From: an uncultured Gemmatimonadaceae bacterium
Lineage (GTDB): Bacteria; Gemmatimonadota; Gemmatimonadetes; Gemmatimonadales; Gemmatimonadaceae
Direction: 5' to 3'
Assembly (NCBI GenBank): GCA_964350145.1
Contig: CAYGJL010000001.1
Coordinates: 25,209-89,208 of the forward strand
Length of the DNA: 64,000 nt
Position numbers and translations under genes: made by a program. Every line of letters starts with the position of its first letter. Position 1 is the stretch's first letter. Shown piece after piece: positions 30,124 through 56,880 of the stretch. Below the pieces are notes generated by a model, which did no database searches, was not told the origin of the DNA, and was given only the letters and a program-made list of their open reading frames with translations.

Positions 30124-30128
30124 CGCAC

Positions 30129-35195: not shown

Positions 35196-36285
35196 CAGCA
35201 CGGGTCCTCGCGCCGTCACTCGTTCCGCGGAGTCGGGCGGAATCGAGCGCGCGCTGGTGGTGGGGTTGGGCAGCATCGGTCTGCGGCATGCGCGATTGCT
35301 GCGGGAACTCCTTCCCGGCGTCGAGCTGGTGGCGCTGCGGCACGACGCATCGAAGATCGGTGGATCGAGCGGCGTGGACAGGTCATTTTACACCATCGAG
35401 GAGGCTCTGCGCGCGCGGCCGCAAATCGCGGTGATCGCGAGCCCCGCGACGAGGCACCTGGATGCCGCGCTGCCGTTGGCGCAGGCGGGTGTGCATCTGC
35501 TCATCGAAAAGCCGATCGCCGCGGACGTGGAAGGAGTCGCGGAACTGATAGACGTTTGCGCGGCGCGTGGCGTGGTCCTCATGACCGGCTACAACCTTCG
35601 CTTTCTGAGTTCGCTGCGGACATTCCGGGAACTGTTGTCCGGCGGCCGTGTCGGGCGTGTTCTCTCTGTCCGGGCGGAAGTCGGTCAGTATCTACCAGCA
35701 TGGCGTCCGTCCGCCGATTATCGCGCCGGTGTGTCGGCGTCGAGCTCGCTTGGCGGGGGAGTGCTGCTCGAGCTCAGCCACGACATCGACTATCTGCGCT
35801 GGCTGTTCGGAGAGATCGAATGGGTCAGCGCTATTCAGCGAAAGCAGAGCGCGCTCGATATTGATGTGGATGACACCGCGCATCTCACTTTCGGTTTTGC
35901 TTCCGCCGATGCGAGCGCACCGCTGGTCGCGAATCTCAACATGGATTTCATCCGCCACGACGCGTGTCGGACCTGCACGGCGATCGGCGAGACCGGTACG
36001 CTCCGCTGGGACGCGCGGCACGGCGCGGTGGACGTGTACGACGAAGGCAGCACCGATTGGGCCTCGTTGTTCGTCGAGGAGCCGGAGCGGGACGTGAGCT
36101 ACCGCGCCCAATGGCTCCACTTCCTTTCGTGCATCGCTGGTGAGGCGAGGCCTCTCGTATCGGGTGAGGATGGGCTGGCCGCGCTGAGCGTGGTCGCTGC
36201 CTGTCGCGAATCGTCGCGTTCCGGAATGGTCGTTCCCGTAAATACGGAGCGCCTGCGACACGCGCCTGCGGTGGTGCCGACGTGA
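35155..36285 (+). CDS. Gfo/Idh/MocA-family oxidoreductase accompanying the leg genes
   Basis: LVVGLGSIGLRHARLL Rossmann start and HLLIEKPIA family motif. Start uncertain (35155 overlaps ptmE by 41 nt). Confidence 0.7.
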   Translation: MISSRRKGIIPTADSTGPRAVTRSAESGGIERALVVGLGSIGLRHARLLRELLPGVELVALRHDASKIGGSSGVDRSFYTIEEALRARPQIAVIASPATRHLDAALPLAQAGVHLLIEKPIAADVEGVAELIDVCAARGVVLMTGYNLRFLSSLRTFRELLSGGRVGRVLSVRAEVGQYLPAWRPSADYRAGVSASSSLGGGVLLELSHDIDYLRWLFGEIEWVSAIQRKQSALDIDVDDTAHLTFGFASADASAPLVANLNMDFIRHDACRTCTAIGETGTLRWDARHGAVDVYDEGSTDWASLFVEEPERDVSYRAQWLHFLSCIAGEARPLVSGEDGLAALSVVAACRESSRSGMVVPVNTERLRHAPAVVPT

Positions 36286-36986
36286 GCGTCGTAGCCCTCA
36301 TCTGCGCGCGCGGCGGATCCAAGGGAGTTCCGGGAAAGAACATCCGCCCGCTCGGCGGCCGGCCGCTCATGGCCTGGGCGGTCGATCAGGCGCTCGCGGT
36401 GGAGCGGATCGAGCGGGTGATCGTTTCCACGGATTCTCCCGAGATAGCCGACGTCGCCCGCGCAGCCGGAGCCGACGTTCCCTTTCTCCGCCCGGCGGAG
36501 CTTGCCCGGGACGACAGCTCGGAGTGGCTCGTGTGGCGGCACGCGCTCGATTTCATGAAAGCGCGCGACGGCGAATATCCGGACGTGCTGATCGTGGTGC
36601 CGGCGACCGCGCCGCTGCGCAGCGTCTCGGACCTGGAACGCTGCCTCGATGAATTCGCTCTTGGCGGTGCAGACATCATCATTACTGTCAGCGACGCGCA
36701 CCGCAGTCCGTATTTCAACATGGTCAAGCTCGGTCCGGACGGCGCAGTGTCGCTCGTCATACCGGGCGCGACGATCGACCGGCGGCAGGACGTACCGGTG
36801 GTCTACGACATGACGACCGTAGCGTACGTGGCAAAACCCGAGACCATCATGACGCGAAACGGCATCTTCGACGCGAGAGTCAGGTCGGTTTACGTTCCAG
36901 CGGAGCGCGCTCTGGACATCGACACGTTGTTGGACTTCCGGATCGCGGAATGTCTCATGGCAAGTGCCAAGGCAGGCGCGGAATGA
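36282..36986 (+). CDS. legF: CMP-legionaminic acid synthetase (NeuA/CTP_transf_3 family), copy 2
   Basis: VVALICARGGSKGVPGKNIRPLGGRPLMAWAV; 234 aa. GTGA overlap with the upstream gene. Confidence 0.8.
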   Translation: MSVVALICARGGSKGVPGKNIRPLGGRPLMAWAVDQALAVERIERVIVSTDSPEIADVARAAGADVPFLRPAELARDDSSEWLVWRHALDFMKARDGEYPDVLIVVPATAPLRSVSDLERCLDEFALGGADIIITVSDAHRSPYFNMVKLGPDGAVSLVIPGATIDRRQDVPVVYDMTTVAYVAKPETIMTRNGIFDARVRSVYVPAERALDIDTLLDFRIAECLMASAKAGAE

Positions 36987-37783
36987 CTGGCCTCGCCGGG
37001 TTGATGAGTCTCGAGGGCCGCCGCGCCGTCGTGACCGGCGCGGCTGGGCGGCTGGGCGGTGTAATCGCGGGAACTCTCGCCGAACTCGGTGCCAGTCTGG
37101 TGCTGGTGGATAAGCCGGGGTCGGACTACGGTGCGCTCCTGAAGGATCTGGAGTCGGTCGGCAAATCTCCCGTCGAGACGATGGACTGCGACCTGGAGCT
37201 CGAGCAGGATCGGGAGGGCCTGATCCAGCGAATCCGACTGGCCGGGTCGCTGCATGTCCTCGTCAACAACGCGGCGTTCGTTGGCGACTCGAAGCTGACA
37301 GGCTGGTCAACGGAGTTCGAGCGGCAAACGGTGGCCACCTGGCGCCGAGCGCTCGAGGTCAACCTTACGGCCGTGTTCGACCTCTCGAAGGGACTCGCCG
37401 GGCTGCTGCGCGAGAGCGACGGGGGAAACATCATAAACGTGGCGTCGATTTACGGGTCGTACGCGCCCGATTACAGCTTGTATGCCGGGACCGCAATGGG
37501 AAATCCGGCGGCGTACGCCGCATCCAAGGGCGGCATGATTCAGCTTACGCGCTGGCTGGCGACTACTCTCGCGCCGCAGGTGCGCGCGAACGCGATTTCG
37601 CCGGGCGGTATCCTGCGCGGCCAGCCTGACATTTTCGTCAAACGGTACGAGGAGCGAACACCGCTGGGGCGGATGGCGCGCGAGGAGGACTTCATTGGCG
37701 CTGTCGCCTATCTGGCTACAGACCTCTCGCGCTACGTCACTGGTCAGAACCTGGCCGTTGATGGCGGCTGGGGACTGTGGTGA
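36983..37783 (+). CDS. Classical SDR oxidoreductase accompanying the leg genes (PtmA-like position)
   Basis: ATGA overlap at 36983. AVVTGAAGRLGG, NNAAF, YAASKGGM (YxxxK). Confidence 0.75.
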   Translation: MTGLAGLMSLEGRRAVVTGAAGRLGGVIAGTLAELGASLVLVDKPGSDYGALLKDLESVGKSPVETMDCDLELEQDREGLIQRIRLAGSLHVLVNNAAFVGDSKLTGWSTEFERQTVATWRRALEVNLTAVFDLSKGLAGLLRESDGGNIINVASIYGSYAPDYSLYAGTAMGNPAAYAASKGGMIQLTRWLATTLAPQVRANAISPGGILRGQPDIFVKRYEERTPLGRMAREEDFIGAVAYLATDLSRYVTGQNLAVDGGWGLW

Positions 37784-41472: not shown

Positions 41473-41769
41473 GTGCCGTCCGAGAGTGAGTTGCTGGAAT
41501 CCATTTACGAAACGATTCGCGAATTCAACGGCCAGCTCCCGCCGGACGCGCGTCTGGCGTGCGCCCCTGAGACGGTGCTGGTTGGCGACGGCGGTGTGCT
41601 GGATTCGCTCGGCCTGATCAACTTTCTGGTCATGCTGGAGGATTCGCTGGAGGCGGGTCTGGGGCGCCGCGTGACACTGCTCGACGAGCGTTACATGTCG
41701 GCCGAAGACGGGCCGTTTCGCACCGTTCGATCACTGGCCCGGCATGCCGCAGCCGAGGCCGCGAAGTGA
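41473..41769 (+). CDS. Acyl/peptidyl carrier protein (phosphopantetheine-binding)
   Basis: 98 aa. GGVLDSLGLINFLVMLE contains the DSL serine attachment motif at the start of helix II. GGAGAA RBS upstream of GTG 41473. Confidence 0.65.
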   Translation: MPSESELLESIYETIREFNGQLPPDARLACAPETVLVGDGGVLDSLGLINFLVMLEDSLEAGLGRRVTLLDERYMSAEDGPFRTVRSLARHAAAEAAK

Positions 41770-41829
41770 GCGGTGACTTCGCCGCCGACTGTCGTCGCGG
41801 CCGGGCATTCACAACCCAGATAGTTACCA

Positions 41830-43614
41830 ATGACTGACACGACGACTTCGGCCGCTCGCTTTGCTGCGGACGGTTTTCTGGTTTTACATCCGGAACAGGT
41901 CTTTACTCCAACTGATCTGTCCGAGCTGGAGCGGCTTGCCAGCGCTGCGTTGCCGGCGTGGGCGGACGGGAGCGTCAACCCGCTGGAGAACGACAGCCAC
42001 GCGGATCCGCGCTTCGACTACGCCATTGACCGCGAGGACGGAGTCCAGCTGCGCGGTGTCGCGCTGCGGCACCGTTTCCTGAGAGGTCATGGCAGCCTGG
42101 ACAGCGCGCTCGACGACAACTTCCTGTTCGGAAAGCGCGCGGCGCTCGAAATCCGGAGGTGGCCCGATCCGCTGATCAGCTTCGCGGAGAACTCCAGGTT
42201 GCGCGGCCACGTTGCCGGCGTCCTGGGCTGCTCCGAGCTAGCGTTGCATGATGGGGCGATAGCGGCGGTTTATCCCGGGTGTGCGGGCGAGGCCCGGCAA
42301 TATCACATCGATACCCCGTCATTCATGCAGAGCCCTTCGGACCCGCTACCCTCAACGGCCGTACTCATGACGGCGGTGGTGTATCTGTCCGACGTGGATT
42401 CGGCCTCGGCGCCCTTGCGGCTGATCCCTGGCTCGCACGCACGTTACCAGGAAATCAACGAGAGTGCGGCGCGCTCTTTGAGACGGTCGCCGGAGCGGAA
42501 CAACGTCTTGCCGGGCGGCCACACGTGGGAGGAGATGTTGCCGGCCGGTTTGCCGACCCCGCGCACGATCATCGGGCGGAAAGGCACGGTCGTATTCCTG
42601 CACGGCAACCTGCTGCACGCCTGGGCGGAAAACGCGACTGAAAGCACGACGAGGACGATGTTACTGCACTTCTCCTGTGCGTCGCACGCGAGCGCGTTCA
42701 CGCGGAGGCCGCTCGATCGCGCGAGTTCGGCGCGCGCGTATCGCGCGTTCAGCGACAAGGCCCTGGTCGCGAGAACGATTGGCACGGAGGCGCGGCTGCT
42801 GTCGCGCAAGCGCGTGATCAAGCATCGCGATTCCGTAACGGAGTTTTTCAAGGACGGCTGGAAAGAGCCGATCCGCCCATACTACTACCGGCTGCAGAAG
42901 AAGCTCCGCCGCGTGCGCGACAAGCCCGTCGAGTCCAAGCGTTTTCTCAACGTGGGAGCGGGTGTGGCCTGGCGGCATCCGGAAGTGATCTGCCTGGACC
43001 ACGAGCTGCCGAACTCGGAAGTGGCGCTGGATCTGAATTACCCGGTCCCGCTGCCGTTCGAGGATGCCCGCTTCGAGGGAGTGTACACCTCTCACTGCAT
43101 GGAGCATTTGAAGGAATCACAGGTGGTGTGGTGGATTCGCGAAGTGCTGCGGACGTTGCGGCCCGGCGGCGTGTTTCGGGTCACGGCTCCCGACATCAAG
43201 GCCTATCTCGACGCGTACGATGCGCGGGACGCGAGCTACTTCGACTGGATCCGGGGAAGAGCGGCGTACCACTACGACGGTTGGCTTCGGTTGATCGTGC
43301 GGATGTTCGCCGAGCCCGTCGTGGACAACTATTCGGATGAGGAGCTCAAGCGTCTCTACGAAACGATGCCACGCGCGGAGTTTCTCGAGTTCTTCAACGC
43401 GCAGGTGGAGAAAGTCGAGGATGAGCGGTACCTGAACCCGAGCTGTCACAAGTCGTGGTGGTCGGGGGAGAAGTTCCGCGACTGCATGCTGGAAGCGGGG
43501 TTCTCCTCCGCCGCGCTCACGTCCCGGACCGGCTCGGCGTGCGCGGTGTTTCGCGAAAACGCGTTCAACCGCACTAGGACGCACATGAGCTTTTACGTCG
43601 AGGGCACGAAGTAG
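41830..43614 (+). CDS. Fusion: PhyH-type Fe(II)/2-oxoglutarate dioxygenase (N-terminal) + class I SAM methyltransferase (C-terminal)
   Basis: FAADGFLVL, YHIDTPSF (HxD), LRLIPGSH, GTVVFLHGNLLHAW (distal His). C-terminal FLNVGAGVAW (motif I) and FEGVYTSHCMEHL...LRPGGVFRVTAPD. Confidence 0.7.
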   Translation: MTDTTTSAARFAADGFLVLHPEQVFTPTDLSELERLASAALPAWADGSVNPLENDSHADPRFDYAIDREDGVQLRGVALRHRFLRGHGSLDSALDDNFLFGKRAALEIRRWPDPLISFAENSRLRGHVAGVLGCSELALHDGAIAAVYPGCAGEARQYHIDTPSFMQSPSDPLPSTAVLMTAVVYLSDVDSASAPLRLIPGSHARYQEINESAARSLRRSPERNNVLPGGHTWEEMLPAGLPTPRTIIGRKGTVVFLHGNLLHAWAENATESTTRTMLLHFSCASHASAFTRRPLDRASSARAYRAFSDKALVARTIGTEARLLSRKRVIKHRDSVTEFFKDGWKEPIRPYYYRLQKKLRRVRDKPVESKRFLNVGAGVAWRHPEVICLDHELPNSEVALDLNYPVPLPFEDARFEGVYTSHCMEHLKESQVVWWIREVLRTLRPGGVFRVTAPDIKAYLDAYDARDASYFDWIRGRAAYHYDGWLRLIVRMFAEPVVDNYSDEELKRLYETMPRAEFLEFFNAQVEKVEDERYLNPSCHKSWWSGEKFRDCMLEAGFSSAALTSRTGSACAVFRENAFNRTRTHMSFYVEGTK

Positions 43615-45303
43615 GTGAGCGCCGCGGATCAGGGTAGTGGCGTGAAGGTCATTTCAGACTTCAACGCCGATCTGTTCGGCCGGTACCTGACGAACGCGCT
43701 CGGTGCGGAGATGCCCGTGGAGGTCTGCGCTTTCGGCCAGGTCTATCAGGAACTCGCCGCACCGAACGACAACGCATCCACTGCCGCGGCGGTAGTGTGG
43801 ACGCGCGCGCAGGGCGTCGTTGCGAGCTTCGCGCGGGCGATGGAGTTTCATGAGGTGCCCCATGAGGCGGTGCTCGCCGAAGTGGATGCGTTCGCGGATG
43901 TCGTCGCACGATTCGCCACGGGCATCAGGTACGTTTTCCTCACGAGCTGGATCGTGCCGCCTGGTCGGGGCTACGGATTGCTCGATCATCGTCCGGGTCT
44001 GGGAATCGCGCATTTGGTAGCGCGCATGAACGCGCGGCTGTCGGAGCGGCTGGCTTCGGCTTCGAACGTCTACATCCTCGACGCGGAGCGATGGATGAGA
44101 GCCGCCGGCGCGCGCGCCGCAGCGCCGAAGATGTGGTACGCGGGCAAGGTTCCGTACGGCAATTCCGTCTTCGAGCAGGCGGCGCTCGACGTGGCGGCCG
44201 CGCTGGAAGGTCTCGCTGGCCGGTCGCGTCGCCTCATTGTCCTCGACCTCGACAATACCCTATGGGGTGGCGTGGTCGGTGAAGGCGGCTGGCAGGGTTT
44301 GACTTTGGGTGGTCACGATCACGTCGGTGAGGCGTTCGCCGACTTTCAGCGTGCCCTGGCCGGGCTCCGCCGCCGCGGCGTTCAGCTCGCCGTCGTCAGC
44401 AAGAACGACGAGGACGTCGCGCTCGATGCCATCGACAAGCACCCGGAGATGGTCCTGCGCCGCGGAGATCTCGCCGGCTGGAGAATCAACTGGGGAGACA
44501 AGGCGCAGAACATTGCTGCTCTTGTCGCGGAGATCAACCTCGGTCTCGCATCGGTGGTGTTCATCGATGATAGCGCCATCGAGCGGGCGCGAGTCAGGGA
44601 GACCTTCCCGGAAATCCTGGTGCCGGAATGGCCCGCGGATCCTGCCCAATACCGGGCAGCGCTCGAATCGCTGCGTTGCTTTGACTCGGGTCCGCTCAGC
44701 GGGGAGGATCGCCAGCGCGGAGACATGTATGCCGCCGAGCGTGAGCGCCGCGCCAGCTTCGAGCGTGTCGGCTCGCTCGATGATTGGCTGAAGACGCTGG
44801 ACATCACCGTCGAGGCAGCCGACGTGAGCGACGCCAACATCAAGCGCGCGGCTCAGCTCTTCAACAAGACGAACCAGATGAACCTCTCGACTCGGCGCTT
44901 GACCGAGCGCGAGTTGCTGGAATGGGCCACTGATCCGGCGAGACGGCTGTGGGCGATTACAGTCGCGGACCGGTTCGGCACGTCCGGCCTCACGGGCATA
45001 GTCGCGATCGAAGTGGAAGGCGAGAAGGCGAGACTGACTGATTTCCTGCTGAGCTGCCGCGTGATGGGAAGGAGGGTGGAGGAGACCATGCTGTATCTCG
45101 CGGAGTCGCACGCCCGGGCTGCCGGCGCCCGCGCGATCGTCGCGGAGTTCGTTCCCACGGATCGCAACCGGCCGTGTCGCGAGTTTTTCGAGGGCACGGG
45201 AATGCGACTGGCGGGCGACAACCTGTTTGTGCGGGATCTCGACGGCGCGCCGCAGCCGCCCGAGTGCGTCACTCTGGTCGAAACCGCGGACGCGCGAGGT
45301 TGA
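43615..45303 (+). CDS. FkbH-like HAD-IIIC phosphatase / glyceryl-loading enzyme with C-terminal GNAT-like domain
   Basis: LIVLDLDNTLWGGVVGE (DxDxT), VVSKNDEDVA, INWGDKAQNI, VFIDDSAIE, and FLLSCRVMGRRVE (the conserved Cys motif of FkbH/OzmB-type enzymes). Confidence 0.8.
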   Translation: MSAADQGSGVKVISDFNADLFGRYLTNALGAEMPVEVCAFGQVYQELAAPNDNASTAAAVVWTRAQGVVASFARAMEFHEVPHEAVLAEVDAFADVVARFATGIRYVFLTSWIVPPGRGYGLLDHRPGLGIAHLVARMNARLSERLASASNVYILDAERWMRAAGARAAAPKMWYAGKVPYGNSVFEQAALDVAAALEGLAGRSRRLIVLDLDNTLWGGVVGEGGWQGLTLGGHDHVGEAFADFQRALAGLRRRGVQLAVVSKNDEDVALDAIDKHPEMVLRRGDLAGWRINWGDKAQNIAALVAEINLGLASVVFIDDSAIERARVRETFPEILVPEWPADPAQYRAALESLRCFDSGPLSGEDRQRGDMYAAERERRASFERVGSLDDWLKTLDITVEAADVSDANIKRAAQLFNKTNQMNLSTRRLTERELLEWATDPARRLWAITVADRFGTSGLTGIVAIEVEGEKARLTDFLLSCRVMGRRVEETMLYLAESHARAAGARAIVAEFVPTDRNRPCREFFEGTGMRLAGDNLFVRDLDGAPQPPECVTLVETADARG

Positions 45304-45337
45304 CGAAGCCGCGCGATGGCGGCGCCTGGTTGCCTGA

Positions 45338-46378
45338 ATGAGTCTGGAAGTACGCCTGTGCGAGGCCCACGAGATCGGTCTCGTCATGAAGTTCCTCCAC
45401 GAGCATTGGGCCAGGGACCACGTTCTGTCGCGCGATCGCGCGTTGATGGACTGGCAGCATGAGCGCCCGGACGGGCGGTATAACTTCATCGTCGCCTCGC
45501 GCGGCAGTGACAGCGGGTTGCTAGCCGTGCTCGGCTTCATTCCGACGTCCAGGTATGACCCCCAACTCGCCGAGCAGACCGTCTGGCTGGCGCTCTGGAA
45601 AGTCAGGCCCGACGCTGCGGCGGCTGGCCTCGGCCTCGCAATGCTCCGGCATCTCACGTCCATGCATGGTGATTCCGCTGTAGGGGTGGTCGGAATCGGG
45701 CCGGCGGAGCACCTGGGGATGTATCGGGCATTGCGCTTCGCGACGGGACATTTGTCGCAGCACTACATGCTCAACGACTCCGTGACGGATTTCCGGATCG
45801 CGCGCGTGCCCGTTCGCCCGGCGAGTGGCGCTCCAAGGTCCGGCGGCGCGAGCCTCCGCCTGCTCGCGGACGACGACCTCAGGGATGACGGCGCCCTGGC
45901 CCGGCGACTGCGGGACGAATCGGCCATCCCGCGCAAGAGCGCGCGGTATTTCCGGTCGCGCTTCTTCAACCACCCGGTGTACACCTACGAACTGTACGCC
46001 GTCGAGGCCGGAGATCGTGCCGGCATCGTCGCGACCAGACTGGCCGTTCACGAAGGGCGCAGTGCGTTGAGAATCGTGGACTATCTCGGGAGCGAGTCGC
46101 TCTTTGGCGAGATCGGGGAGGGGGTCCAGGAGCTGCTACAGTCCGCGGGCGCCGAATACGCCGACGTGTGGAATGCCGGCTTTTCACCTTCTACGTTCGC
46201 GGAAGCCGGGTTCGCCAAGGTGGAGCCGGAGGGAGCGATCGTGATCCCGAATTACTTCGAGCCGTTCCTGCAGCGTAACGGGCGTATCTCGTACGCTCTC
46301 CGGTCCACGCTGTCGCGGCCACTCGCGATCTTCCGCGCCGATGGCGATCAGGATCGCCCGAACGAGCCGGGCCGATGA
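45338..46378 (+). CDS. Hypothetical protein, possibly a GNAT-fold acyltransferase
   Basis: 346-codon ORF. N-terminal region (VLGFIPTS...WLALWKVRPDAAAAGLGLAMLRHL) is GNAT-like by eye. No firm motif. Confidence 0.4.
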   Translation: MSLEVRLCEAHEIGLVMKFLHEHWARDHVLSRDRALMDWQHERPDGRYNFIVASRGSDSGLLAVLGFIPTSRYDPQLAEQTVWLALWKVRPDAAAAGLGLAMLRHLTSMHGDSAVGVVGIGPAEHLGMYRALRFATGHLSQHYMLNDSVTDFRIARVPVRPASGAPRSGGASLRLLADDDLRDDGALARRLRDESAIPRKSARYFRSRFFNHPVYTYELYAVEAGDRAGIVATRLAVHEGRSALRIVDYLGSESLFGEIGEGVQELLQSAGAEYADVWNAGFSPSTFAEAGFAKVEPEGAIVIPNYFEPFLQRNGRISYALRSTLSRPLAIFRADGDQDRPNEPGR

Positions 46379-47802
46379 GCTCCGAGGTGATCGGAACGCG
46401 CGCGTTCTCGACGCTGGATCAGCGCTTCTTCAGCGATCTCTCGGGAGACTGGAATCCGGTGCACGTGGACGGGGAGTACGCCCGGAGAACGATGTTCGGC
46501 GACGTCGTAGTCCACGGGATCCACGCCGTGTTGTGGGCGCTGGACAGATACGCCGCGGTCGGCGGCGAGGCGCCCGCGACCTTGGGGGCGCAGTTCGTGA
46601 AGCCGATCTTTCTACATGAAACGATCACTCTGCGATCGATCGACGAGGGCGGCACCAGGATGCTCGTGTTGTCCAGCGACTCGGTCACGCTGGCGACTGT
46701 GTCTCTCAACCCGCAGGTGCGGGCTTCGAACGTAGCCGCGGCCCGCGCCACGGGTTGGCCCACTGGGCCGCGGGCGCTTGGCCGGGAAGAACTCGCTAGA
46801 AGCGAAGCGGAACTGCCCTTCGATTCCGACCTGGAAGCGCTTGCCGCCGCATTTCCGTCGCTAGCCCGGTTGATCGGGAGTCGCGCCTGCGGAACGATCA
46901 TGCTGTTGTCCCGTCTGGTGGGGATGGAGTGTCCGGGCAAGCAGTCCTTGTTCGCCGGTCTGCGGTTGTCGTTGGAGCGCAGCGAACGCGACGCGCTCAC
47001 GTACCGCGTGAAACGGTCGGAGCCAGCCTTCGCGCCGGTCGAGATGGAGTTTTCCGGACCCGACGCGACCGGAACCGTGGCCGCGTTCTTCCGTCCCGCG
47101 GAAGTCGCGCAGCCCACGTTCGCGGAGCTGCGCCGGCGCGTCGAGGCGTCGGAGTTCGCGACCACCCGCGCGCTGGTCGTTGGCGGCTCGCGGGGACTCG
47201 GCGAAGCGACGGCCAAGCTGCTTGCGGCTGGCGGCGCCGAAGTAGCCGTCACGTACGCCGTGGGGGCCAGCGACGCCGAGCGCGTGCGTCGCGAGATCGT
47301 GGAGGGAGGCGGTCGTTGCCAGGTGCACCAGCTCGACGTGCTCGACCCGGAGCGGTCGCTCGCCGGCATTTGCAAGGGATTCGACTTCGATACCGCGTAC
47401 TACTTCGCGACGCCCCGGATCAACGGACGCCGGAAGGCCATGTTCGAGCCGGAGAGACTCCGCGCCCTCGAACGGTACTATGTGGATGCATTCGCCGACT
47501 TCTGCCGGCTGATCGGTGCCGCCACGGGCGCCGACACGGTGGTGTTTTATCCGTCCACGATCTTCATCGACGAGCATAGCCGGGACAACATCGAGTACGC
47601 GGCGGCCAAGGCGGCGGGCGAAACTCTCGGCGCGTATCTGACCAGTTCGCGGGTGGTGCGTGTGATCTCGAAGCGCCTGCCTCGGATGGCGACGGATCAG
47701 ACGGCCGGAATCGTCCAGGTCACGGTCGCAGAGACGGTCTCCGTGCTGCTCGACGCGGTGCGGGAGGTGAACGCCGCCGCGCTCGCCCTCTCCGCTCGGT
47801 AG
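46375..47802 (+). CDS. Fusion: MaoC-like (R)-hydratase/dehydratase hot-dog (N-terminal) + SDR (C-terminal)
   Basis: FSDLSGDWNPVHVDGEYA (MaoC hydratase motif). C-terminal ALVVGGSRGLGEA and EYAAAKAAGE (YxxxK). ATGA overlap upstream. Confidence 0.7.
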   Translation: MSSEVIGTRAFSTLDQRFFSDLSGDWNPVHVDGEYARRTMFGDVVVHGIHAVLWALDRYAAVGGEAPATLGAQFVKPIFLHETITLRSIDEGGTRMLVLSSDSVTLATVSLNPQVRASNVAAARATGWPTGPRALGREELARSEAELPFDSDLEALAAAFPSLARLIGSRACGTIMLLSRLVGMECPGKQSLFAGLRLSLERSERDALTYRVKRSEPAFAPVEMEFSGPDATGTVAAFFRPAEVAQPTFAELRRRVEASEFATTRALVVGGSRGLGEATAKLLAAGGAEVAVTYAVGASDAERVRREIVEGGGRCQVHQLDVLDPERSLAGICKGFDFDTAYYFATPRINGRRKAMFEPERLRALERYYVDAFADFCRLIGAATGADTVVFYPSTIFIDEHSRDNIEYAAAKAAGETLGAYLTSSRVVRVISKRLPRMATDQTAGIVQVTVAETVSVLLDAVREVNAAALALSAR

Positions 47803-47806
47803 ACGC

Positions 47807-48784
47807 GTGCCACTCACCGTCGTGATGTACCACTACGTCAGGCCGCTCCGAGGCTCGCGCTATCCTGGGATCAAGGGGCTCGAGCTCGAGCACTTTGAAG
47901 GGCAGCTGGCGTACATCGACCGGCATTACACTCCGGTGACGATGGAAGCCGTGGTCGCCTCGCTGCGGGGTGAGACGGAGCTGCCAGCCAATGCCGCGCT
48001 GTTGACGTTTGACGACGGTTACCGCGACCACTACGATCACGTTTTGCCGCGGCTCGCAAAGCGGCGCTGGCAGGGTTGCTTCTTCGTCCCGGCGTCGCCC
48101 GTCCTGGCGAGCGTCATGCTCGCCGTGAACAAGCTTCATTTCGTTCTCGCCGTGGCTCCGTCCGCCGGAGGGCTGGTTCACGAAACCGAGCGGCTCATGG
48201 ACTCGGCGCGTGGCGAGTTGGAGCTTCCATCGTCGGCCGAGTTGCGCGCGAAGCTGTACAGCCCGACCCGTTTCGATTCCGCCGACGTCGCGTATCTCAA
48301 ACGCCTGCTGCAGCGAGTGCTGCCCGAAGGATTCAGGTCGTCGGTTCTCTCGACTCTCTTCGCGCAATTCGTGACCGAGGACGAACGTGGATTCGCCGAA
48401 GAACTTTATCTGTCGGTTGACGACCTGAGCGAGATGCTCTCGGCGGGAATGCACGTCGGCGGTCACGGCGACAGGCACCGGTGGCTCGGCAGTCTCTCGC
48501 CCGCGGAGCAGCGCGAGGAGCTGACCGCGTCGGTCGGCTTCCTCCGGTCGATCGGAGCCGCCGGTGAGGCCTTCAGCTTTTGCTATCCGTACGGTGACTA
48601 CAACACCGTCACGCTCGACCTATTGGCCGAGCTCGGTTGTTCCGTCGCGTTCACTACGCGCGTGGACCTGGCCACGATGGGCGCTGTCCCGCGGCTCGGG
48701 GTGCCGCGGCTCGACACGAACGACCTGCCGACGACGGCTGGCGCGGCGGCGAACGAGTGGGCCCGCAAAGCCCTCGTCGTCTAG
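47807..48784 (+). CDS. Polysaccharide deacetylase (NodB homology, CE4-like)
   Basis: VVMYHYV, ALLTFDDGYRDHY (TFDDG motif 1), GGHGDRH (His motif 2). Confidence 0.75.
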   Translation: MPLTVVMYHYVRPLRGSRYPGIKGLELEHFEGQLAYIDRHYTPVTMEAVVASLRGETELPANAALLTFDDGYRDHYDHVLPRLAKRRWQGCFFVPASPVLASVMLAVNKLHFVLAVAPSAGGLVHETERLMDSARGELELPSSAELRAKLYSPTRFDSADVAYLKRLLQRVLPEGFRSSVLSTLFAQFVTEDERGFAEELYLSVDDLSEMLSAGMHVGGHGDRHRWLGSLSPAEQREELTASVGFLRSIGAAGEAFSFCYPYGDYNTVTLDLLAELGCSVAFTTRVDLATMGAVPRLGVPRLDTNDLPTTAGAAANEWARKALVV

Positions 48785-48901: not shown

Positions 48902-49543
48902 ATGAAAGACAACGCAATCGTAATCATAGATTATGGAATGGGGAACTTGCGATCGGTGAGTAACGCCCTCGCATTCCTCGGCTGTGAATCCAGCATCTCC
49001 GATCGGCCGGAAGAAATCGAGCGCGCCGCGGCTCTGATCCTGCCGGGTGTCGGCGCGTTCGGCGAGGCCATGCACAACCTCGCTGAAAGGAATCTGGTGG
49101 ATCCTATCCGGCGAGCGGTGGGCGGGAGTGGCACGCCGCTGCTCGGGATCTGTCTCGGCATGCAATTGATAGCTGAGCGGAGCGATGAGCGCGGACGGCA
49201 CGAGGGGCTCGCGCTCATTCCCGGAGAAGTGAGCCGCATACCGGTTCCAGCGGGTCTACCGCTGCCGCATGTGGGCTGGAACCCGATTTCCGTCGTTCGG
49301 CCGGACCCGTTTCTCTCGGGCCTGGAAGATGGCGAAAGCTTCTACTTTGTTCATAGCTACTGCCTCAGCACCGACGATGAGTACGTTGCCGCGCGCTGTT
49401 CCTACGGCGTCGATTTCGTCGCGGCGGTCCAGCACGACAACATCTTCGCTACACAGTTCCACCCCGAGCGGAGCCAGACGAGCGGCCTGCGCATTCTCCG
49501 GAACTTCGTAACGTTCGCTCAAGCGGCTCAGCCGACCGTTTAG
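48902..49543 (+). CDS. hisH: Glutamine amidotransferase subunit, HisH family (glycan-locus paralogue)
   Basis: IVIIDYGMGNLRSV, LPGVGAFG, LLGICLGMQL (nucleophile Cys), FHPERS. Confidence 0.85.
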   Translation: MKDNAIVIIDYGMGNLRSVSNALAFLGCESSISDRPEEIERAAALILPGVGAFGEAMHNLAERNLVDPIRRAVGGSGTPLLGICLGMQLIAERSDERGRHEGLALIPGEVSRIPVPAGLPLPHVGWNPISVVRPDPFLSGLEDGESFYFVHSYCLSTDDEYVAARCSYGVDFVAAVQHDNIFATQFHPERSQTSGLRILRNFVTFAQAAQPTV

Positions 49544-49547
49544 CGCA

Positions 49548-50420
49548 GTGTTGAAGAAGCGCTTGATCGCCTGTCTCGTGGTGCGGGACGGGCTGATCGT
49601 TCAGAGCATCGGGTTCAGCCGCTACCTGCCCATCGGCCGTCCGAAGATCGCCATCGAATTCGTCGCGCGGTGGGACGTGGACGAGATTGTCGTGCTGGAC
49701 ATGAGCGCTGCGCGCGCCGGACGGGGCCCCGATCTGGAAGTGATCGCCATGGCCGTGGAGCGCTGCTTCGTGCCCCTTACGATCGGCGGCGGAATCCGGT
49801 CGCTGACGCAGGTCACGGACGTGATCCGCGCCGGGGCCGACAAGATCGCCATCAACACCATGGCAATAGAGTCGCCCGACTTCATCACCCGGTGCGCGGA
49901 CGCCTACGGCAGCCAGTGCGTGGTCGTGTCCATCGACGCCAGGCGCGCGGCCGACGGAAGGCACGAAGTGTTCGCCGACTCAGGCACGAGACCAACGGGT
50001 GTTGATGCTCCGGCATGGGCCGCTGAAGTCGAGCGGCGCGGCGCTGGCGAAATCTTCATCAATTCGATCGACCGGGACGGGTCGAAGCTCGGTTACGACG
50101 TGGATCTGATTCGCAGCGTCACCGACGCGGTCAGCATCCCCGTCATCGCCTGCGGTGGCGTCGGAACGTATCGCGACTTTGCGCCCGGCATCATCGACGG
50201 TGGCGCCTCGGCGGTAGCGGCCGCGAACATCTTCCACTACATCGAGCACAGCACCATCGTCGCCAAGGCCCACCTGCGCCGCGCGGGCATCGACATTCGC
50301 CTCGACAGCCTGGCCAACTATGCCAAGCTGAACTTCGACGAGCAGGGGCGTCTGCTGAAGCTGACTGACGCGGAGCTCGAAGAGATCACGCACGAGCGTT
50401 TCGAGCTCAACTCGATATGA
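49548..50420 (+). CDS. hisF: Cyclase/synthase subunit, HisF family (glycan-locus paralogue)
   Basis: [43 protein letters not shown]; 290 aa with a C-terminal extension. Confidence 0.8.
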
Positions 50421-51745
50421 AATACTGCGCGCGTTGCATGTATCCGGCGAATCATCCCTACGGCATCGTATTCGACGAGGCCGGAGTGTGCAGCGGCTGC
50501 CGCGTGCACGAGGAAAAGGATTTTCTCGACTGGGGCGCGCGCGGCAGGACGCTCGAAGGCATCCTGGACGGATACCGGACCAAGGCGGGACACAACTTCG
50601 ACTGTGTAATTCCAGTCACGGGCGGAGGCGACAGCTATTTCATCGTTCACGTGGCGAAGCACGTCTACGGGCTGAACCCCCTGCTCGTCACCTACAACCA
50701 CGAGTACAACACCAGGCGCGGCATACGGAACCTGGGAAATCTCGTCTCGGCGCTGGACTGCGATCTAATGCAGTACACGCTTGCGCCGGACCAGCTGCAG
50801 AAGATCACGCGGCACACGCTACGGAAGTACGGCAGCATGTATTGGCACGTGCTCGCTGGGTACCTGACCTTCCCGGTCCAGGTAGCGGTGAAGTTCAAGA
50901 TCCCGCTGATCATCTGGGGAGTGCAGCCGTTCTCGGATCAGGTTGGCATGTTTTCCCATCTCGACGAAGTGGAGATGACGGAGAAGGCGCGGAAGGAGCA
51001 CGGCCTGTTCGGCGTCAGCGCTGAAGACGTGGTGGACCAGTCGGCCGGGGTGACGCGCCGCGACGTGCAGCCGTTCATCTACCCGTACGACAACGAGCTG
51101 GAGCGAATCGGTGTACGTGGTCTGTACCTGAGCAACTACATCCGCTGGGACTCGAAGGCGCAGCACGAGCTGATGATAGACATGTATGGCTACGAGTCGG
51201 CCGCCCAGCAGCGCACGTTCAACACGTACGAGGACGTTCACTGCTTTCACTCTGCCGGTGTGCACGATTACCTGAAGTTCCTGAAGCTGGGTTACGGCAA
51301 GGTGACCGACCACGCCTCCCGGGAGATCCGCCTGCGGCGCATGTCGCGGGAGGAAGGGGCGCGGATGGTGGAGCGGTATTCCTCGCAGCCGCCCGCGGAT
51401 TTGCCGCTCTTTCTCGAGTGGGTCGGCATGACGGAACGCGAGTTCTACGACTGCGTCCGTGATCGCCGTGATCCGGCGATCTGGAAGAAGGCGCGCGGCG
51501 TCGAATACGAGCTGCTCGACTCGATCGCGAATCACGTGGACGGGCCGCAGGTCGAGGCGGTGAGGCTAGAGCGCCGCGAAGCGTGCGAGTTTCGCGTCAC
51601 GCCGCAGGCCGAGGACACGGCGGAGGACTCGTATCTGCTGATGGGTCGCGGCTACATCGACGGGATGAATTACGCTTCGGTGGAGGATCGAGTTCCCGGT
51701 GGGGGGATGACTCCGCGTCTCGAGCCGATCCCGTCGCCGCTATGA
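50417..51745 (+). CDS. N-acetyl sugar amidotransferase family (WbpG/PseA-like PP-loop enzyme), copy 1, with variant PP-loop
   Basis: N-terminal Cys cluster CARC...CSGC. PP-loop position reads CVIPVTGGGDSYF (TGGGDS instead of SGGKDS). Confidence 0.7.
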   Translation: MKYCARCMYPANHPYGIVFDEAGVCSGCRVHEEKDFLDWGARGRTLEGILDGYRTKAGHNFDCVIPVTGGGDSYFIVHVAKHVYGLNPLLVTYNHEYNTRRGIRNLGNLVSALDCDLMQYTLAPDQLQKITRHTLRKYGSMYWHVLAGYLTFPVQVAVKFKIPLIIWGVQPFSDQVGMFSHLDEVEMTEKARKEHGLFGVSAEDVVDQSAGVTRRDVQPFIYPYDNELERIGVRGLYLSNYIRWDSKAQHELMIDMYGYESAAQQRTFNTYEDVHCFHSAGVHDYLKFLKLGYGKVTDHASREIRLRRMSREEGARMVERYSSQPPADLPLFLEWVGMTEREFYDCVRDRRDPAIWKKARGVEYELLDSIANHVDGPQVEAVRLERREACEFRVTPQAEDTAEDSYLLMGRGYIDGMNYASVEDRVPGGGMTPRLEPIPSPL

Positions 51746-52881
51746 ACGCCTATCCGGTGCGACACTGCAAGCGGTGCGTGCTTCCGAGCACGAAACCCGG
51801 CCTCCTCATCGATGACGAGGGCGTGTGCAGTGCCTGCCGTCAGGTCGAGCGGAAGAAGCTGATCGACTGGGACGCGCGGGAGGCCGAGTTGGCGGCGCTG
51901 TGCGACAGCATCCGCGGCAAGAACGGCAATGGCTACGACTGCATCGTGCCCGTGAGCGGCGGCAAGGACAGCACGTACCAGGTCTGGGTGATGAGCAAGG
52001 TACACGGCCTGAAAGTGCTTGCCGTGAACGTCGTCGCGCACCTCCAGACGCGCGAGGGCATACACAATCTGAACGCGATGGTCGAACACCTCAATGTCGA
52101 TCTCATCAAGGTGAACGTCCGTCCGACCACCTTGAAGAAGATCCGGAACTCCGCGTTCTTCAAGATCGGCAACCCCAACTGGGCCGAGCATCGGGTGATC
52201 TTCGCGGCGGTAGCGCGCACGGCCCTGCTGTACCACGTTCCCCTGGTGGCATGGGGCGAGGACATTGCGGTCGAGTTTGGCGGCAATCGCGCGAAGTCCG
52301 TCACGCAGGAGGGCTCGGCCGAAGAGCTCATCAACAACGATCTTTTCCGGGAAGCAACGCTGGAGGACTTGCTCGGTACGGACGTCAGGCCGAGCGAGCT
52401 CCTTTTCTATATGCACCCCGACAAGGACGAGCTGAAGCGTCGTGGAATCCGGAGCATCTATCTGGGGCACTACCGGTGGTGGGACGGAACCAAGCACTAC
52501 CTGAAGGCGAAGGAATTCGGCTTCCGGCCGCGCAGAGAAGGTCCGCTCTCCGGCAACATCCTCGACTACGACAACATCGACGAGAAGCTCTGCGAGGTCA
52601 ACATCTGGTTCAAGTTCCTCAAGCACGGCTTCTGGCGCCCGCACGATCAGTCCTGCTACAAGATCTGGAACGGGTACATGAGCCGCGAGGAAGCGGTCGA
52701 GCTGATTCATGCCAAGCAATACGAGTTTCCGATCGAGTACTTCCAGGAGTACCTGGAGTATCATGAGATGACCGAGCGGCAGTTCCGGGACAACGAGGAC
52801 AAGTGGAGAAATCCGCGCCTGTGGCATCAGGTCAACGGCGAGTGGAGGCTCCGCTACCCCATTGAACAGCTGGTTGAGTAG
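51742..52881 (+). CDS. N-acetyl sugar amidotransferase family (WbpG/PseA-like PP-loop enzyme), copy 2, canonical
   Basis: ATGA overlap at 51742. CKRC...CSAC. CIVPVSGGKDSTY (canonical PP-loop). Confidence 0.75.
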   Translation: MNAYPVRHCKRCVLPSTKPGLLIDDEGVCSACRQVERKKLIDWDAREAELAALCDSIRGKNGNGYDCIVPVSGGKDSTYQVWVMSKVHGLKVLAVNVVAHLQTREGIHNLNAMVEHLNVDLIKVNVRPTTLKKIRNSAFFKIGNPNWAEHRVIFAAVARTALLYHVPLVAWGEDIAVEFGGNRAKSVTQEGSAEELINNDLFREATLEDLLGTDVRPSELLFYMHPDKDELKRRGIRSIYLGHYRWWDGTKHYLKAKEFGFRPRREGPLSGNILDYDNIDEKLCEVNIWFKFLKHGFWRPHDQSCYKIWNGYMSREEAVELIHAKQYEFPIEYFQEYLEYHEMTERQFRDNEDKWRNPRLWHQVNGEWRLRYPIEQLVE

Positions 52882-54875: not shown

Positions 54876-55952
54876 ATGCGCGTATTGCTGCTGCATAAAT
54901 ATGGGCGTCGGGCCGCAAGTTTCAGGCATCGCTTCGAGCAGTACATCCCGTATCTCGACGAGGCTGGGCTACAGTGTACCGTTTCGTCGCTGCTTGAGGA
55001 GGATTATCTCAAGGACATGTTCCTTGCGGACAGGCGAAATCTTTTTGCCGTTATGCGCGGCATTTTCCGGCGCGTGCGAGTGCTCGTCGGCGTTCGCAAG
55101 TATGATCTCGTCATCATCGGGCAGGATCTGTTTCCGTTCGCTCCGGCCATTTTTGAGCGGTATCTGAACATTCGCGGCGTTCCGTATATCTTCGACTACG
55201 ACGATCCCATTTTCCACCAGTACGACATGCACCGCTCGCCGGCTGTGCGACTTCTGCTGGGAAGGAAACTGCAGGCTGTTATCAGAGGGGCGGAGCTGGT
55301 GTTCGCCGGCAGCCCGTATATCGCTGCTTACGCCCGCGTCGTAAACGCGAATGTCGAGTATCTGCCAACTGTCGTCGATCTCGAGGTTTTCCGCCAGCTA
55401 AAGGACCATCGCGTCCGGAACGGCCAGTTCGTGGTCGGCTGGATCGGCTCACCGTCCACGGCGGTTTACCTCAAAGCGCTCGTGCCGGTGCTGAGGCGCT
55501 TCTGCGCGAGTACCGGCGCGCGAGTCGTGCTCGTGGGCTCCGGCCCGGTCGATCTGCCTGGCGTGCCCACCGAGATCCGGGAGTGGAGTGAGCAGACCGA
55601 AGTCGAAGAAATCTTGCGATTCGACGTAGGCATCATGCCAATGGCCGATGACCAGTGGGCGCGCGGCAAGTGCGGGTTCAAGCTGGTTCAGTACATGGCT
55701 TGTGGCCTTCCAATAATCGCTTCACCCGTCGGAGTCAGTCCCGTGGTCGTGACGGATGGTGTGGAGGGGTTTCTTCCCCCGGGAGACGAGGGATGGCTCG
55801 CCGCCATGCATTCGCTGCATGCCGATGCGGAATTGGCGGCGCGCATGGGTCGCGCCGCGCGCAAGCGAGTGGAGGCCGCATACTGTCTGCAGGTCACAGC
55901 TCCACGCTTCGTTGCCGGAGTACAACGCGTGCTGGCGGGCACGCCGAAATGA
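54876..55952 (+). CDS. GT-B glycosyltransferase, family 4 / group 1
   Basis: GGGGGGAG RBS about 4-5 nt upstream of ATG 54876. MRVLLLHKYG start. C-terminal FDVGIMPMADDQWARGKCGFKLVQYMACGLPIIASPVG. The alternative GTG 54693 would add a 61-aa Arg/Pro-rich extension. Confidence 0.7.
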   Translation: MRVLLLHKYGRRAASFRHRFEQYIPYLDEAGLQCTVSSLLEEDYLKDMFLADRRNLFAVMRGIFRRVRVLVGVRKYDLVIIGQDLFPFAPAIFERYLNIRGVPYIFDYDDPIFHQYDMHRSPAVRLLLGRKLQAVIRGAELVFAGSPYIAAYARVVNANVEYLPTVVDLEVFRQLKDHRVRNGQFVVGWIGSPSTAVYLKALVPVLRRFCASTGARVVLVGSGPVDLPGVPTEIREWSEQTEVEEILRFDVGIMPMADDQWARGKCGFKLVQYMACGLPIIASPVGVSPVVVTDGVEGFLPPGDEGWLAAMHSLHADAELAARMGRAARKRVEAAYCLQVTAPRFVAGVQRVLAGTPK

Positions 55953-56857: not shown

Positions 56858-56880
56858 CTCCACACGCGCCAGAAGGCATC

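Follow-up and report, generated by a model that had tools for sequence, protein, structure and literature searches.

How does a bacterium put an acyl group other than acetyl onto a nonulosonic acid (NulO)? Two of these sugars, legionaminic acid (Leg) and pseudaminic acid (Pse), are found in many pathogens and commensals on flagella, capsules, O-antigens and S-layers. Antigenicity depends on their N-acyl groups, as does recognition by phages and by the immune system. The core pathways have been worked out, but those enzymes that put on acyl groups other than acetyl have not; according to a 2024 study, N-modification enzymes are "largely unknown" and the order of N-acylation is an open question (PMC11040635). 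N-glyceroyl and lactoyl substituents are chemically known (PMC5378307, PMC8157484), and both lactoyl and glyceryl are among the listed modifications of prokaryotic NulOs (PMC8157484). The question is raised here by a stretch of 64,000 nucleotides (hereafter, the window) from an uncultured Gemmatimonadaceae bacterium (GenBank assembly GCA_964350145.1, contig CAYGJL010000001.1, positions 25,209 to 89,208), the whole of which is a single glycan locus on the + strand.

The answer that we propose lies in five of six neighbouring genes at positions 41473–48784 of the window. These five code for an acyl carrier protein (ACP), an FkbH-type enzyme, a protein of an uncharacterised family that we call g4, a fusion of a MaoC hydratase with a short-chain dehydrogenase/reductase (SDR), and a NodB/CE4-type deacetylase. 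As a cassette, they probably swap one N-acetyl group of Leg, or of its cytoplasmic precursor, for a three-carbon (C3) hydroxy-acid built on the carrier protein, a reading that we draw from gene content and conservation.

The six genes and the g4 family

Six tightly packed open reading frames (ORFs) fill this part of the window:

41473–41769, + strand: ACP, 98 aa, with an LDSL motif (Ser45)
41830–43614, + strand: PhyH::MT fusion (MT, methyltransferase), 594 aa, Pfam PhyH and Methyltransf_11
43615–45303, + strand: FkbH-type enzyme, 562 aa, TIGR01686
45338–46378, + strand: g4, a tandem-GNAT protein by fold match and without a family model, 346 aa
46375–47802, + strand: MaoC::SDR fusion, 475 aa, Pfam MaoC_dehydratas and adh_short
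47807–48784, + strand: NodB/CE4-type deacetylase, 325 aa, PF01522, with an alternative start at 47825

An earlier note on this DNA, made from the letters alone, had described six consecutive genes here, and all of them are found where it placed them, with the domains matched by hidden Markov models (HMMs) and with the motifs VLDSLGL (holding Ser45), LDLDNTLWGG and LLSCRVMGRR readable in the translations. In the gene call on the identical public contig, the deacetylase starts at 47825. Their length, the family-level HMM scores and the conservation of catalytic residues put the six ORFs far beyond chance; among their six products, the ACP and g4 have no Pfam match (E ≤ 0.01).

The protein that would join the acyl group to the sugar is g4. 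At E ≤ 0.01 it has no match in Pfam or NCBIfam, curated GNAT models included, and its homologues in the databases are all labelled "hypothetical protein". By a full HMM search the family comprises 2,750 clusters (50% identity), of which 1,144 score E ≤ 1e-30. Members are encoded in at least 428 species genomes, those of the cultured Flavobacterium succinicans DD5b, Tepidicaulis marinus MA2, Chitinophaga ginsengisoli DSM 18107, Phocaeicola paurosaccharolyticus JCM 15092, Robertmurraya korlensis NBRC 107688 and Lacrimispora amygdalina included. The AlphaFold2 model of g4 (pLDDT 90.9, pTM 0.90) is matched by Foldseek, with a probability of 1.0, to the tandem-GNAT proteins Eis2, N-myristoyltransferase and VipF (TM 0.45–0.55), so that what the earlier note had guessed to be "GNAT-like" is now placed at the level of the fold. 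Two conserved features stand out in this model and in the alignments. One is a near-invariant G97 followed by an invariant L98-G99, at the start of helix 98–109 and after strand 81–89, which is consistent with the pantetheine/pyrophosphate-binding motif A (xxGxG/A after strand beta-4). The other is the C-terminal (K/R)-A-D-G-D-Q-D-R-P at residues 333–341, invariant in a 36-sequence alignment and found in 69–74 of the 80 ORFs from the loci described below.

Eis and N-myristoyltransferase use their C-terminal carboxylate in catalysis; the DGDQDRP motif is a feature of the g4 family and is absent from both. The likeness to these two enzymes (PDB 6rft, 5uut) consists of two fused GNAT domains in ∼350–400 residues and of chemistry that goes from a pantetheine thioester to an amine, whereas identity to g4 is only 10–13%, at a TM of about 0.5. 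Because of this fold and of a near-obligatory linkage to an ACP and its loader, g4 is predicted to move an acyl group from ACP to an amine, i.e., to act as an acyl-ACP:amino-sugar N-acyltransferase; its gene is the signature of the cassette. When the PDB was searched by sequence, g4 matched only IcmE/DotG repeats, and these low-complexity hits were rejected as spurious.

Regarding the carrier protein, the earlier note had rested on its DSL motif, and the motif is confirmed: Ser45 (L43-D44-S45-L46) is invariant in 14/14 homologues. The match to the NCBIfam ACP model is weak (E = 0.008), as is the best match of the ACP profile in the PDB (E = 0.0015), where 12 of the 14 matches are ACP or DltC carrier proteins. 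The same profile aligns, at an hhalign probability of 95.9%, with ACP cluster c16, whose members are canonical ACPs encoded at the corresponding place in other g4 loci and which passes Pfam PP-binding (PF00550).

The FkbH-type enzyme recognised in the earlier note is likewise confirmed, with 279.6 bits to TIGR01686 (cut-off 146.65; E = 3e-83; profile positions 4–321 of 323) and with both its DLDNT and SCR motifs. It consists of an N-terminal domain (1–195), a HAD-IIIC phosphatase domain with DLDNT, to which PDB 3slr (BF1531) matches at E = 8.5e-41, and a C-terminal domain with Cys481 of the SCR motif. Conservation is high at all the expected sites: D211 and D213 are kept in 42/44 homologues, the elements DxDxT (D211-L-D213-N-T215), K263 and D318-D319 each in 40–43 of the 44, and S480-C481-R482 in 43. 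Work on OzmB reportedly identified the conserved C-terminal Cys of the FkbH family as the site of the glyceryl-S-enzyme intermediate. From family membership and these residues, the enzyme is predicted to charge the ACP with a glyceryl unit taken from 1,3-bisphosphoglycerate. As a separate observation, the N-terminal ∼195 aa (window 43615–44200) are without family assignment and are detected by tblastn in 16 of 43 FkbH-containing loci; the uncharacterised Bacteroides fragilis BF1531 (PDB 3slr) likewise has ∼200 residues before its HAD domain.

The MaoC::SDR fusion passes both of its Pfam models, MaoC_dehydratas (PF01575) with 39.8 bits against a cut-off of 27, and adh_short with 30.2 bits against 26.6. 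In the MaoC half, D25 and H30 of the hydratase-2 motif SGDWNPVH are kept in 9/10 homologues; in the SDR half, GGSRGLG, S394, Y408 and K412 are kept in 9–10 of the 10. Its PDB matches are FabG-type reductases and R-specific enoyl hydratases, including MFE-2 and PhaJ. The deacetylase scores 69.7 bits with Polysacc_deac_1 (PF01522; cut-off 23.1), keeps D69 and D70 of TFDDG in 63/65 homologues and H220 and H224 in as many, and matches the PgaB, IcaB and BpsB deacetylases in the PDB. No signal peptide was found on it, for which reason it is predicted to be cytoplasmic.

The cassette in other genomes

To place these genes in context, 80 loci out of the at least 428 species genomes with g4 were searched with every window protein, split by domain, and, in a second approach, all ORFs within 5.5 kb of g4 were clustered without prior assumptions. 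Neighbours were counted over the 49 g4 loci that have at least 5.5 kb on either side of g4:

Any carrier-protein loader near g4: 47/49 loci
FkbH near g4: 25/49 loci
AMP-binding ligase near g4: 25/49 loci
Both loaders near g4: 3/49 loci
Recognisable ACP near g4: 40/49 loci
Deacetylase near g4: 38/49 loci
NulO gene within 5.5 kb of g4: 26/49 loci

An ACP accompanies FkbH in every one of the 25 FkbH-containing g4 loci. The deacetylase lies within about 10 kb of g4, mostly adjacent to it, in 69 of 82 loci, and these two genes form the conserved core. Judged from these neighbourhoods, the true signature appears to be the pair of g4 and deacetylase, with a loader, FkbH or AMP-ligase, that is interchangeable. 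The MaoC::SDR fusion has a narrower distribution, as all 10 loci that hold it also hold FkbH and the window-type ACP (acpW), and it is seen nowhere else among the loci. Three arrangements recur:

Type A: acpW-FkbH-g4-(MaoC::SDR)-(MT)-deacetylase, often then HisH-HisF-WbuX-WbuX; Proteobacteria, Acidobacteria, Elusimicrobiota, Gemmatimonadales and Prochlorococcus
Type B: FkbH-ACP-(SDR)-g4-deacetylase; Bacteroidota and others
Type C: deacetylase-g4-FkbM MT-GFO-AMP ligase-ACP; Firmicutes

In type A, the ACP gene is directly upstream of FkbH throughout; in the window and in soil contig L089, PhyH::MT alone separates the two. The set ACP-FkbH-g4-MaoC::SDR-deacetylase recurs in about 10 distant lineages, and its order is common to Burkholderiales, Elusimicrobiota, Hyphomicrobiales, Parvibaculum, Gammaproteobacteria, Prochlorococcus, Acidobacteria and L089. 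In L010, a Gemmatimonadales locus, all five are present but g4 and MaoC::SDR have changed places, and a minimal form, ACP-FkbH-g4-deacetylase, is found in L016, L019, L021, L023 and L039. Moreover, 7 related loci and L089 have genes for an acetamidino group (HisH, HisF and WbuX) in direct linkage with the ACP-FkbH cassette.

Type C loci (L036, L040, L048, L049, L054, L057, L061, L064, L073 and L078) have the full order deacetylase-g4-FkbM methyltransferase-GFO oxidoreductase-AMP-binding ligase-ACP-DAHP-synthase-like gene. Their pair of AMP-ligase and carrier resembles DltA/DltC, and this gene content points to the loading of other acids, perhaps amino acids, for use in N-acylation.

The remaining gene of the group behaves differently. 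The earlier note had taken all six as one module; the comparison leaves five as the conserved cassette, with PhyH::MT as a rare and, judging from its contexts, lineage-specific insertion. The fusion joins a PhyH-type Fe/2-oxoglutarate (2OG) dioxygenase (∼residues 1–300; 37.8 bits, cut-off 22) to a class-I S-adenosylmethionine (SAM) methyltransferase (∼345–594; Methyltransf_11, 23.2 bits, cut-off 21.2), and in its AlphaFold2 model (pLDDT 77) the first half has a true PhyH fold, the top Foldseek matches being SnoK, SnoN, EctD, HygX and proline hydroxylases. Only 12 clusters of such fusions exist in 5.8 billion proteins. In the window, the stop codon of the gene abuts the start of FkbH, and just one other locus, L089, has the same layout, ACP-PhyH::MT-FkbH-g4-MaoC::SDR-deacetylase-HisH-HisF-WbuX-WbuX (∼55–65% identity). 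In 4 of the 6 loci read (L086, L087, L088 and L090), the fusion comes after a set of NeuB, GT2, CMP-synthetase and either GFO plus Ldh_2 or a 2-hydroxyacid dehydrogenase; in L087 and L088 it is also upstream of an ABC transporter and LIC12162. The window holds that NeuB/GT2/CMP-synthetase/dehydrogenase set at 0.8–9 kb, without the fusion.

The window copy keeps the facial triad (H159, D161 and H263) and the 2OG-binding R275. These iron ligands and the Arg are replaced in 5 of the 12 homologues (P0122–P0125 and P0132, from loci L086, L089 and L090), so that the L089 copy is without iron ligands, and the MT motifs are invariant throughout. Some members of the family seem to have kept the dioxygenase domain only as a non-catalytic module, and since the MT motifs never vary where the PhyH ligands are lost, methylation would be the conserved activity and hydroxylation an optional one. 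The earlier note's idea that the fusion tailors the acyl group on the carrier is not borne out: this role is doubtful because the fusion usually sits in the other cassette and because its iron ligands are lost in 5/12 homologues. The MT half may O-methylate the hydroxy-acid, and may equally serve the second ulosonic-acid pathway at 0.8–9 kb; its candidate targets are the carrier-bound hydroxy-acid, the second ulosonic acid or the finished glycan. Stand-alone MTs lie within 12 related cassettes, and the notion that PhyH::MT replaces them was dropped, as orthology is unsupported and the two share the generic SAM core alone (hhalign 92.8%, 85 columns).

Presumed substrate, proposed pathway and alternatives

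The cassette lies between two sets of genes that bear on its substrate, one immediately upstream of it and one immediately downstream:

29125–37783, + strand: Leg pathway of the Campylobacter type (GDP-sugar route), from HMM scan and Pfam neighbourhood
48902–52881, + strand: acetamidino cassette (TIGR01855, TIGR03572 and, twice, TIGR03573)
48938–49543, + strand: HisH-like glutaminase of the acetamidino cassette
49548–50420, + strand: WbuZ/HisF-like protein of the acetamidino cassette
50438–51745 and 51742–52881, + strand: two WbuX-type N-acetyl-sugar amidotransferases (TIGR03573 in each)

The first set encodes LegB (TIGR04180, 514 bits, cut-off 475), LegC (TIGR04181, 530 bits, cut-off 420), a NeuD-family N-acetyltransferase, NeuB/LegI, NeuC/LegG, a PtmE-like CBS-nucleotidyltransferase, a PtmF-like GFO oxidoreductase, a CMP-nonulosonate synthetase (CTP_transf_3) and a PtmA-like SDR, with TIGR03570, TIGR03569 and TIGR03568 also above cut-off. 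It is presumed to be the source of the cassette's substrate. It is separated from the six genes by a WsaF-type glycosyltransferase, an epimerase and a weakly matched LIC12162-like protein. The acetamidino cassette probably turns the other N-acetyl group of the sugar into acetimidoyl. The tandem WbuX paralogues after HisH-HisF (50438–52881) are also kept in L003, L006, L014, L016, L033, L075 and L089, and such a pair might form a heteromer or serve two acceptors.

From these parts the following pathway can be put together. FkbH would dephosphorylate 1,3-bisphosphoglycerate, hold the glycerate on Cys481 and pass it to the phosphopantetheine of the ACP, giving glyceryl-S-ACP. The MaoC domain would then eliminate the 3-hydroxyl to yield an enol-pyruvoyl and thence a pyruvoyl-ACP, whose 2-keto group the SDR domain would reduce to give lactyl-ACP; these two steps are suggested by the chemistry of the domains and by the exclusive company that the fusion keeps with FkbH. 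The cytoplasmic deacetylase would remove an N-acetyl group from Leg or its precursor, g4 would move the acyl group from the ACP onto the amine so exposed, and WbuX/Y/Z would convert the remaining N-acetyl to acetimidoyl. The Leg predicted to result would bear two different N-substituents, an acetimidoyl and a lactyl- or glyceroyl-type group, much as in the Pse5Am7Gra of Tannerella forsythia. As to the site of exchange, the need for a deacetylase favours N5, the acetyl group of which comes from GlcNAc, and the usual position of acetimidoyl groups, at N5, favours N7. Candidate stages for the exchange are the nucleotide-sugar, free Leg and CMP-Leg. The minimal type A and type B cassettes, which lack MaoC::SDR, would give N-glyceroyl.

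On the nature of the acyl group, the earlier note needs a change. Its ACP-borne, glycerate-derived unit is retained, but because a dehydratase and a ketoreductase accompany FkbH, and are met only with FkbH, lactyl is a better prediction than glyceroyl for the final group in this locus. The conversion of glyceryl to lactyl by MaoC::SDR is, taken by itself, possible but tentative. In the FkbH-DH-KR-ACP loading modules of bryostatin (BryA) and FR901464, glyceryl-ACP has reportedly been proposed to become lactyl-ACP. These modules have the same succession of FkbH loading, dehydratase and ketoreductase; their dehydratase and ketoreductase are domains of polyketide synthase (PKS) type in a megasynthase, whereas here a MaoC hot-dog is fused to a classical SDR and would act in trans.

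The logic of deacetylation followed by re-acylation from a carrier protein has well-known precedents. Nod factor synthesis uses NodB, a CE4 deacetylase, NodA, an N-acyltransferase, and NodF, a dedicated ACP. The likeness is in the cytoplasmic deacetylation by a NodB-family (PF01522) enzyme and the re-N-acylation from a dedicated acyl-ACP; the differences are in the transferase, which here is a tandem GNAT and not of the NodA family, in the acyl group, here a glycolysis-derived C3 unit made via FkbH and there a fatty acid made by NodE/NodF, and in the acceptor, here presumably a nonulosonic acid and there a chitooligosaccharide. In lipid A synthesis, LpxC de-N-acetylates and LpxD then N-acylates from hydroxyacyl-ACP. 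Again a GlcNAc-derived sugar loses its N-acetyl group and is re-N-acylated from a hydroxyacyl-ACP, although the families are unrelated (the zinc LpxC fold and the left-handed beta-helix of LpxD), and the Lpx enzymes use the housekeeping ACP and long-chain acyl groups.

FkbH has been described together with a stand-alone ACP in the FK520, tetronomycin and tetromadurin pathways (for the last, Mad7/Mad8 and Mad14/Mad12), and in polyketide pathways it turns 1,3-bisphosphoglycerate into glyceryl-S-ACP (PMC7489565). The window shares with these methoxymalonyl and tetronate systems an FkbH that scores above cut-off and has the DxDxT and Cys motifs, and a small dedicated ACP, and glyceryl-S-ACP is the first product expected. 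It differs from them in having no FkbI/FkbK-type dehydrogenases, FkbG-type partner, FabH-like tetronate synthase or PKS, in the GNAT-fold transferase that lies downstream within a glycan locus, and in the extra ∼195-aa N-terminal domain of its FkbH.

Closer to NulOs, the flagellin island of C. jejuni NCTC 11168 contains cj1302, which has an FkbH domain (PMC7099621), and the organism makes a Cj1295-dependent Pse with di-O-methylglyceric acid (PMC3068675). In C. jejuni, too, a NulO glycosylation locus contains an FkbH-domain gene, and the acyl group on the NulO is derived from glycerate; that locus, however, serves flagellin O-glycosylation, whereas the window is an EpsG/ABC-transporter polysaccharide locus. 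No function for cj1302 was found in the open-access literature searched. Pse5Am7Gra, the 5-N-acetimidoyl-7-N-glyceroyl Pse of Tannerella forsythia (PMC5378307, PMC6120980), combines an acetimidoyl group with a C3 hydroxy-acid and so matches the recurrent linkage of FkbH cassette and WbuX/Y/Z, though on a Pse backbone where Leg is predicted here; the gene for its glyceroyl group has been called elusive (PMC6120980).

Several observations weigh against the exchange on Leg as we have set it out. The window ACP, taken alone, stays below Pfam PP-binding (PF00550; no match at E ≤ 0.01), g4 could take acyl-CoA instead of acyl-ACP, or could O-acylate, and the conversion to lactyl leans on the analogy with bryostatin and FR901464, for which no open-access source was found. 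In addition, the window holds at least four other DegT-type aminotransferases and a second pair of deacetylase and GNAT-like protein, so that the target could be another amino sugar. A NulO gene lies within 5.5 kb in only 26 of the 49 g4 loci, and several Firmicutes g4 loci have no NulO genes within 10 kb, from which it follows that the acceptor of the g4 family need not always be a NulO. These last points lend themselves to the view that the acceptor here is not Leg but another amino sugar of the repeat unit, or that g4 O-acylates and the CE4 enzyme is an unrelated de-N- or de-O-acetylase, the CE4 family being known to include O-acetyl esterases. We consider this unlikely. Within ±10 kb of g4, 33 of 82 loci have a CMP-NulO synthetase, 26 NeuB and 25 NeuC, far more than any background rate would give; in the window, the Leg pathway and the acetamidino genes flank the cassette, and its linkage to WbuX/Y/Z recurs in 7 loci; and the coupling of g4 to a deacetylase fits the exposure of an amine. 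The core of the earlier note, an ACP-borne acyl group loaded by FkbH and transferred by a GNAT-like enzyme to an amine that the deacetylase exposes, with Leg as the likely target, is favoured by strong gene-neighbourhood statistics; its tailoring by PhyH::MT is in doubt.

That tailoring is the substance of the explanation first offered for these genes, in which the acyl group stays glycerate-derived and PhyH::MT hydroxylates or O-methylates it on the carrier to give a (di-)O-methylglyceroyl group like that on C. jejuni Pse, leaving MaoC::SDR a side role. It has points in its favour, as ACP and FkbH flank the fusion, whose stop codon abuts the FkbH start, in a layout kept in L089 at ∼57% identity, as the copy in the window retains its Fe and 2OG ligands, and as stand-alone MTs occur within 12 related cassettes; C. 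jejuni, moreover, has both the di-O-methylglyceric-acid Pse and a glycosylation island with an FkbH-domain gene (PMC3068675, PMC7099621). We nevertheless rate it as somewhat unlikely, for the fusion is away from ACP and FkbH in L086, L087, L088 and L090, following NeuB/GT2/CMP-synthetase/dehydrogenase, has lost the iron triad in 5/12 homologues, the L089 copy included, and shares with the cassette MTs only a generic SAM-binding core, while the MaoC::SDR kept with FkbH in 10 loci needs a substrate, of which glyceryl-ACP is the obvious one. If instead FkbH were a HAD phosphatase only, the ACP and MaoC::SDR might supply an acyl group derived from fatty acids, e.g., (R)-3-hydroxybutyryl, the commonest non-acetyl N-acyl group on such sugars. 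MaoC and SDR domains do interconvert enoyl, 3R-hydroxyacyl and 3-ketoacyl thioesters, as in the MFE-2, PhaJ and FabG matches, and 3-hydroxybutyryl NulOs are well known (PMC11040635). This is very unlikely given the SCR Cys kept in 43/44 FkbH homologues, the 25/25 linkage of FkbH with ACP, a MaoC::SDR never found without FkbH among the loci, and a window with no ketosynthase (KS) or thiolase to build the C4 unit; Leg is, furthermore, a 9-deoxy sugar by established pathway knowledge, hence a sugar-phosphate phosphatase step is unexpected. That the genes form a small polyketide, tetronate, methoxymalonyl or lipid pathway which just happens to lie within the glycan locus is extremely unlikely, even though the biochemically characterised FkbH enzymes all serve polyketide pathways (PMC7489565). 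The annotation of the 64-kb window contains no KS, PKS, FabH-like, acyltransferase (AT), condensation, acyl-CoA dehydrogenase or 3-hydroxyacyl-CoA dehydrogenase (HADH; FkbI/FkbK-type) genes and no lipid genes; KS or FabH-like genes are absent also among the recurrent neighbours of g4; all annotated genes of the window are sugar or glycan genes; and NulO loci of many phyla contain the same cassette. A role in polyketide, tetronate or methoxymalonyl synthesis was rejected for want of KS, acyl-CoA dehydrogenase and HADH genes.

For the exchange of an N-acetyl group of Leg by the five-gene cassette, the component families and the deacetylate-then-reacylate-from-ACP logic of Nod factor and lipid A are already known; the transferase family g4 is uncharacterised, and FkbH chemistry outside polyketides would be new. 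Across 7.7 million open-access papers and bioRxiv, FkbH is combined with glycan, legionaminic or pseudaminic terms only in PMC7099621, where the FkbH domain of cj1302 is noted, and nonulosonic, glyceroyl and acyl carrier protein were not found together in open-access literature. The earlier note's statement that this gene set is without previous description is consistent with that literature, subscription-only sources having been outside the search.

More broadly, it is quite possible that g4 is the founder of a widespread class of carrier-protein-dependent NulO N-acyltransferases, present in at least 428 species of many phyla, which with the CE4 deacetylase forms a plug-and-play core for N-acyl exchange, with interchangeable loaders and tailoring enzymes, and which lies behind much of the unexplained N-acyl diversity (glyceroyl, lactoyl and O-methylated groups); in the present organism the outcome would be Leg with acetimidoyl and (O-methyl)lactyl or glyceroyl. 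The loaders would be FkbH for glycolysis-derived C3 acids and a DltA-like AMP-ligase for others, with MaoC::SDR, SDRs and MTs as the tailoring enzymes. The cassette offers clonable candidates for loader, carrier, tailoring enzyme, deacetylase and transferase, gives a candidate role to an unannotated family of about 2,750 clusters, and would make the acyl group of each organism predictable from its gene content. If the proposal is true, it would open a way to the chemoenzymatic synthesis of N-modified CMP-nonulosonates, improve genome-based serotype prediction and provide the first FkbH chemistry outside polyketide biosynthesis.

The remainder of the glycan locus

A second ulosonic-acid cassette occupies 837–8958 and opens with a Polysacc_synt_2-type epimerase; the locus probably makes two different CMP-activated ulosonic acids. 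Its further genes, and a set of genes near the other end of the window, are the following:

1876–2907: NeuB
2904–4283: GT2
4273–5055: CTP_transf_3, followed by a GFO oxidoreductase
6092–7150: Ldh_2-family dehydrogenase
7147–8958: ABC exporter
55949–56857: second Polysacc_deac_1 deacetylase
56923–57792: 289-aa GNAT-like protein with weak matches to Acetyltransf_9 and, locally, to the second half of g4 (E = 0.004)
57841–58587: FabG-like SDR
58632–60605: AsnB-type amidotransferase

In other genomes, this second type of cassette precedes PhyH::MT in L086 and L090, with variants in L087 and L088. The genes at 55949–60605 may serve another sugar, either as a second set for deacetylation and re-acylation or as one for amidation; the deacetylase among them (55949–56857) was considered as a paralogue of the cassette deacetylase and set aside, there being no significant similarity between the two. 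DegT aminotransferases lie at 11.4–13.8 kb and 61.8–62.9 kb, and downstream of the acetamidino genes are a methyltransferase, EpsG and glycosyltransferases.

The window also holds genes for branched or C-methylated sugars. Split transketolase-like enzymes dependent on thiamine pyrophosphate (TPP) are found at 13805–15564 and 25622–27579, and two Methyltransf_13/14 sugar C-methyltransferases (21656–22903 and 23422–24684) flank a DUF6016 gene (22878–23435). An APH-type kinase with a HAD protein lies at 15570–17185, and an HldE-like kinase/nucleotidyltransferase at 20129–21649.

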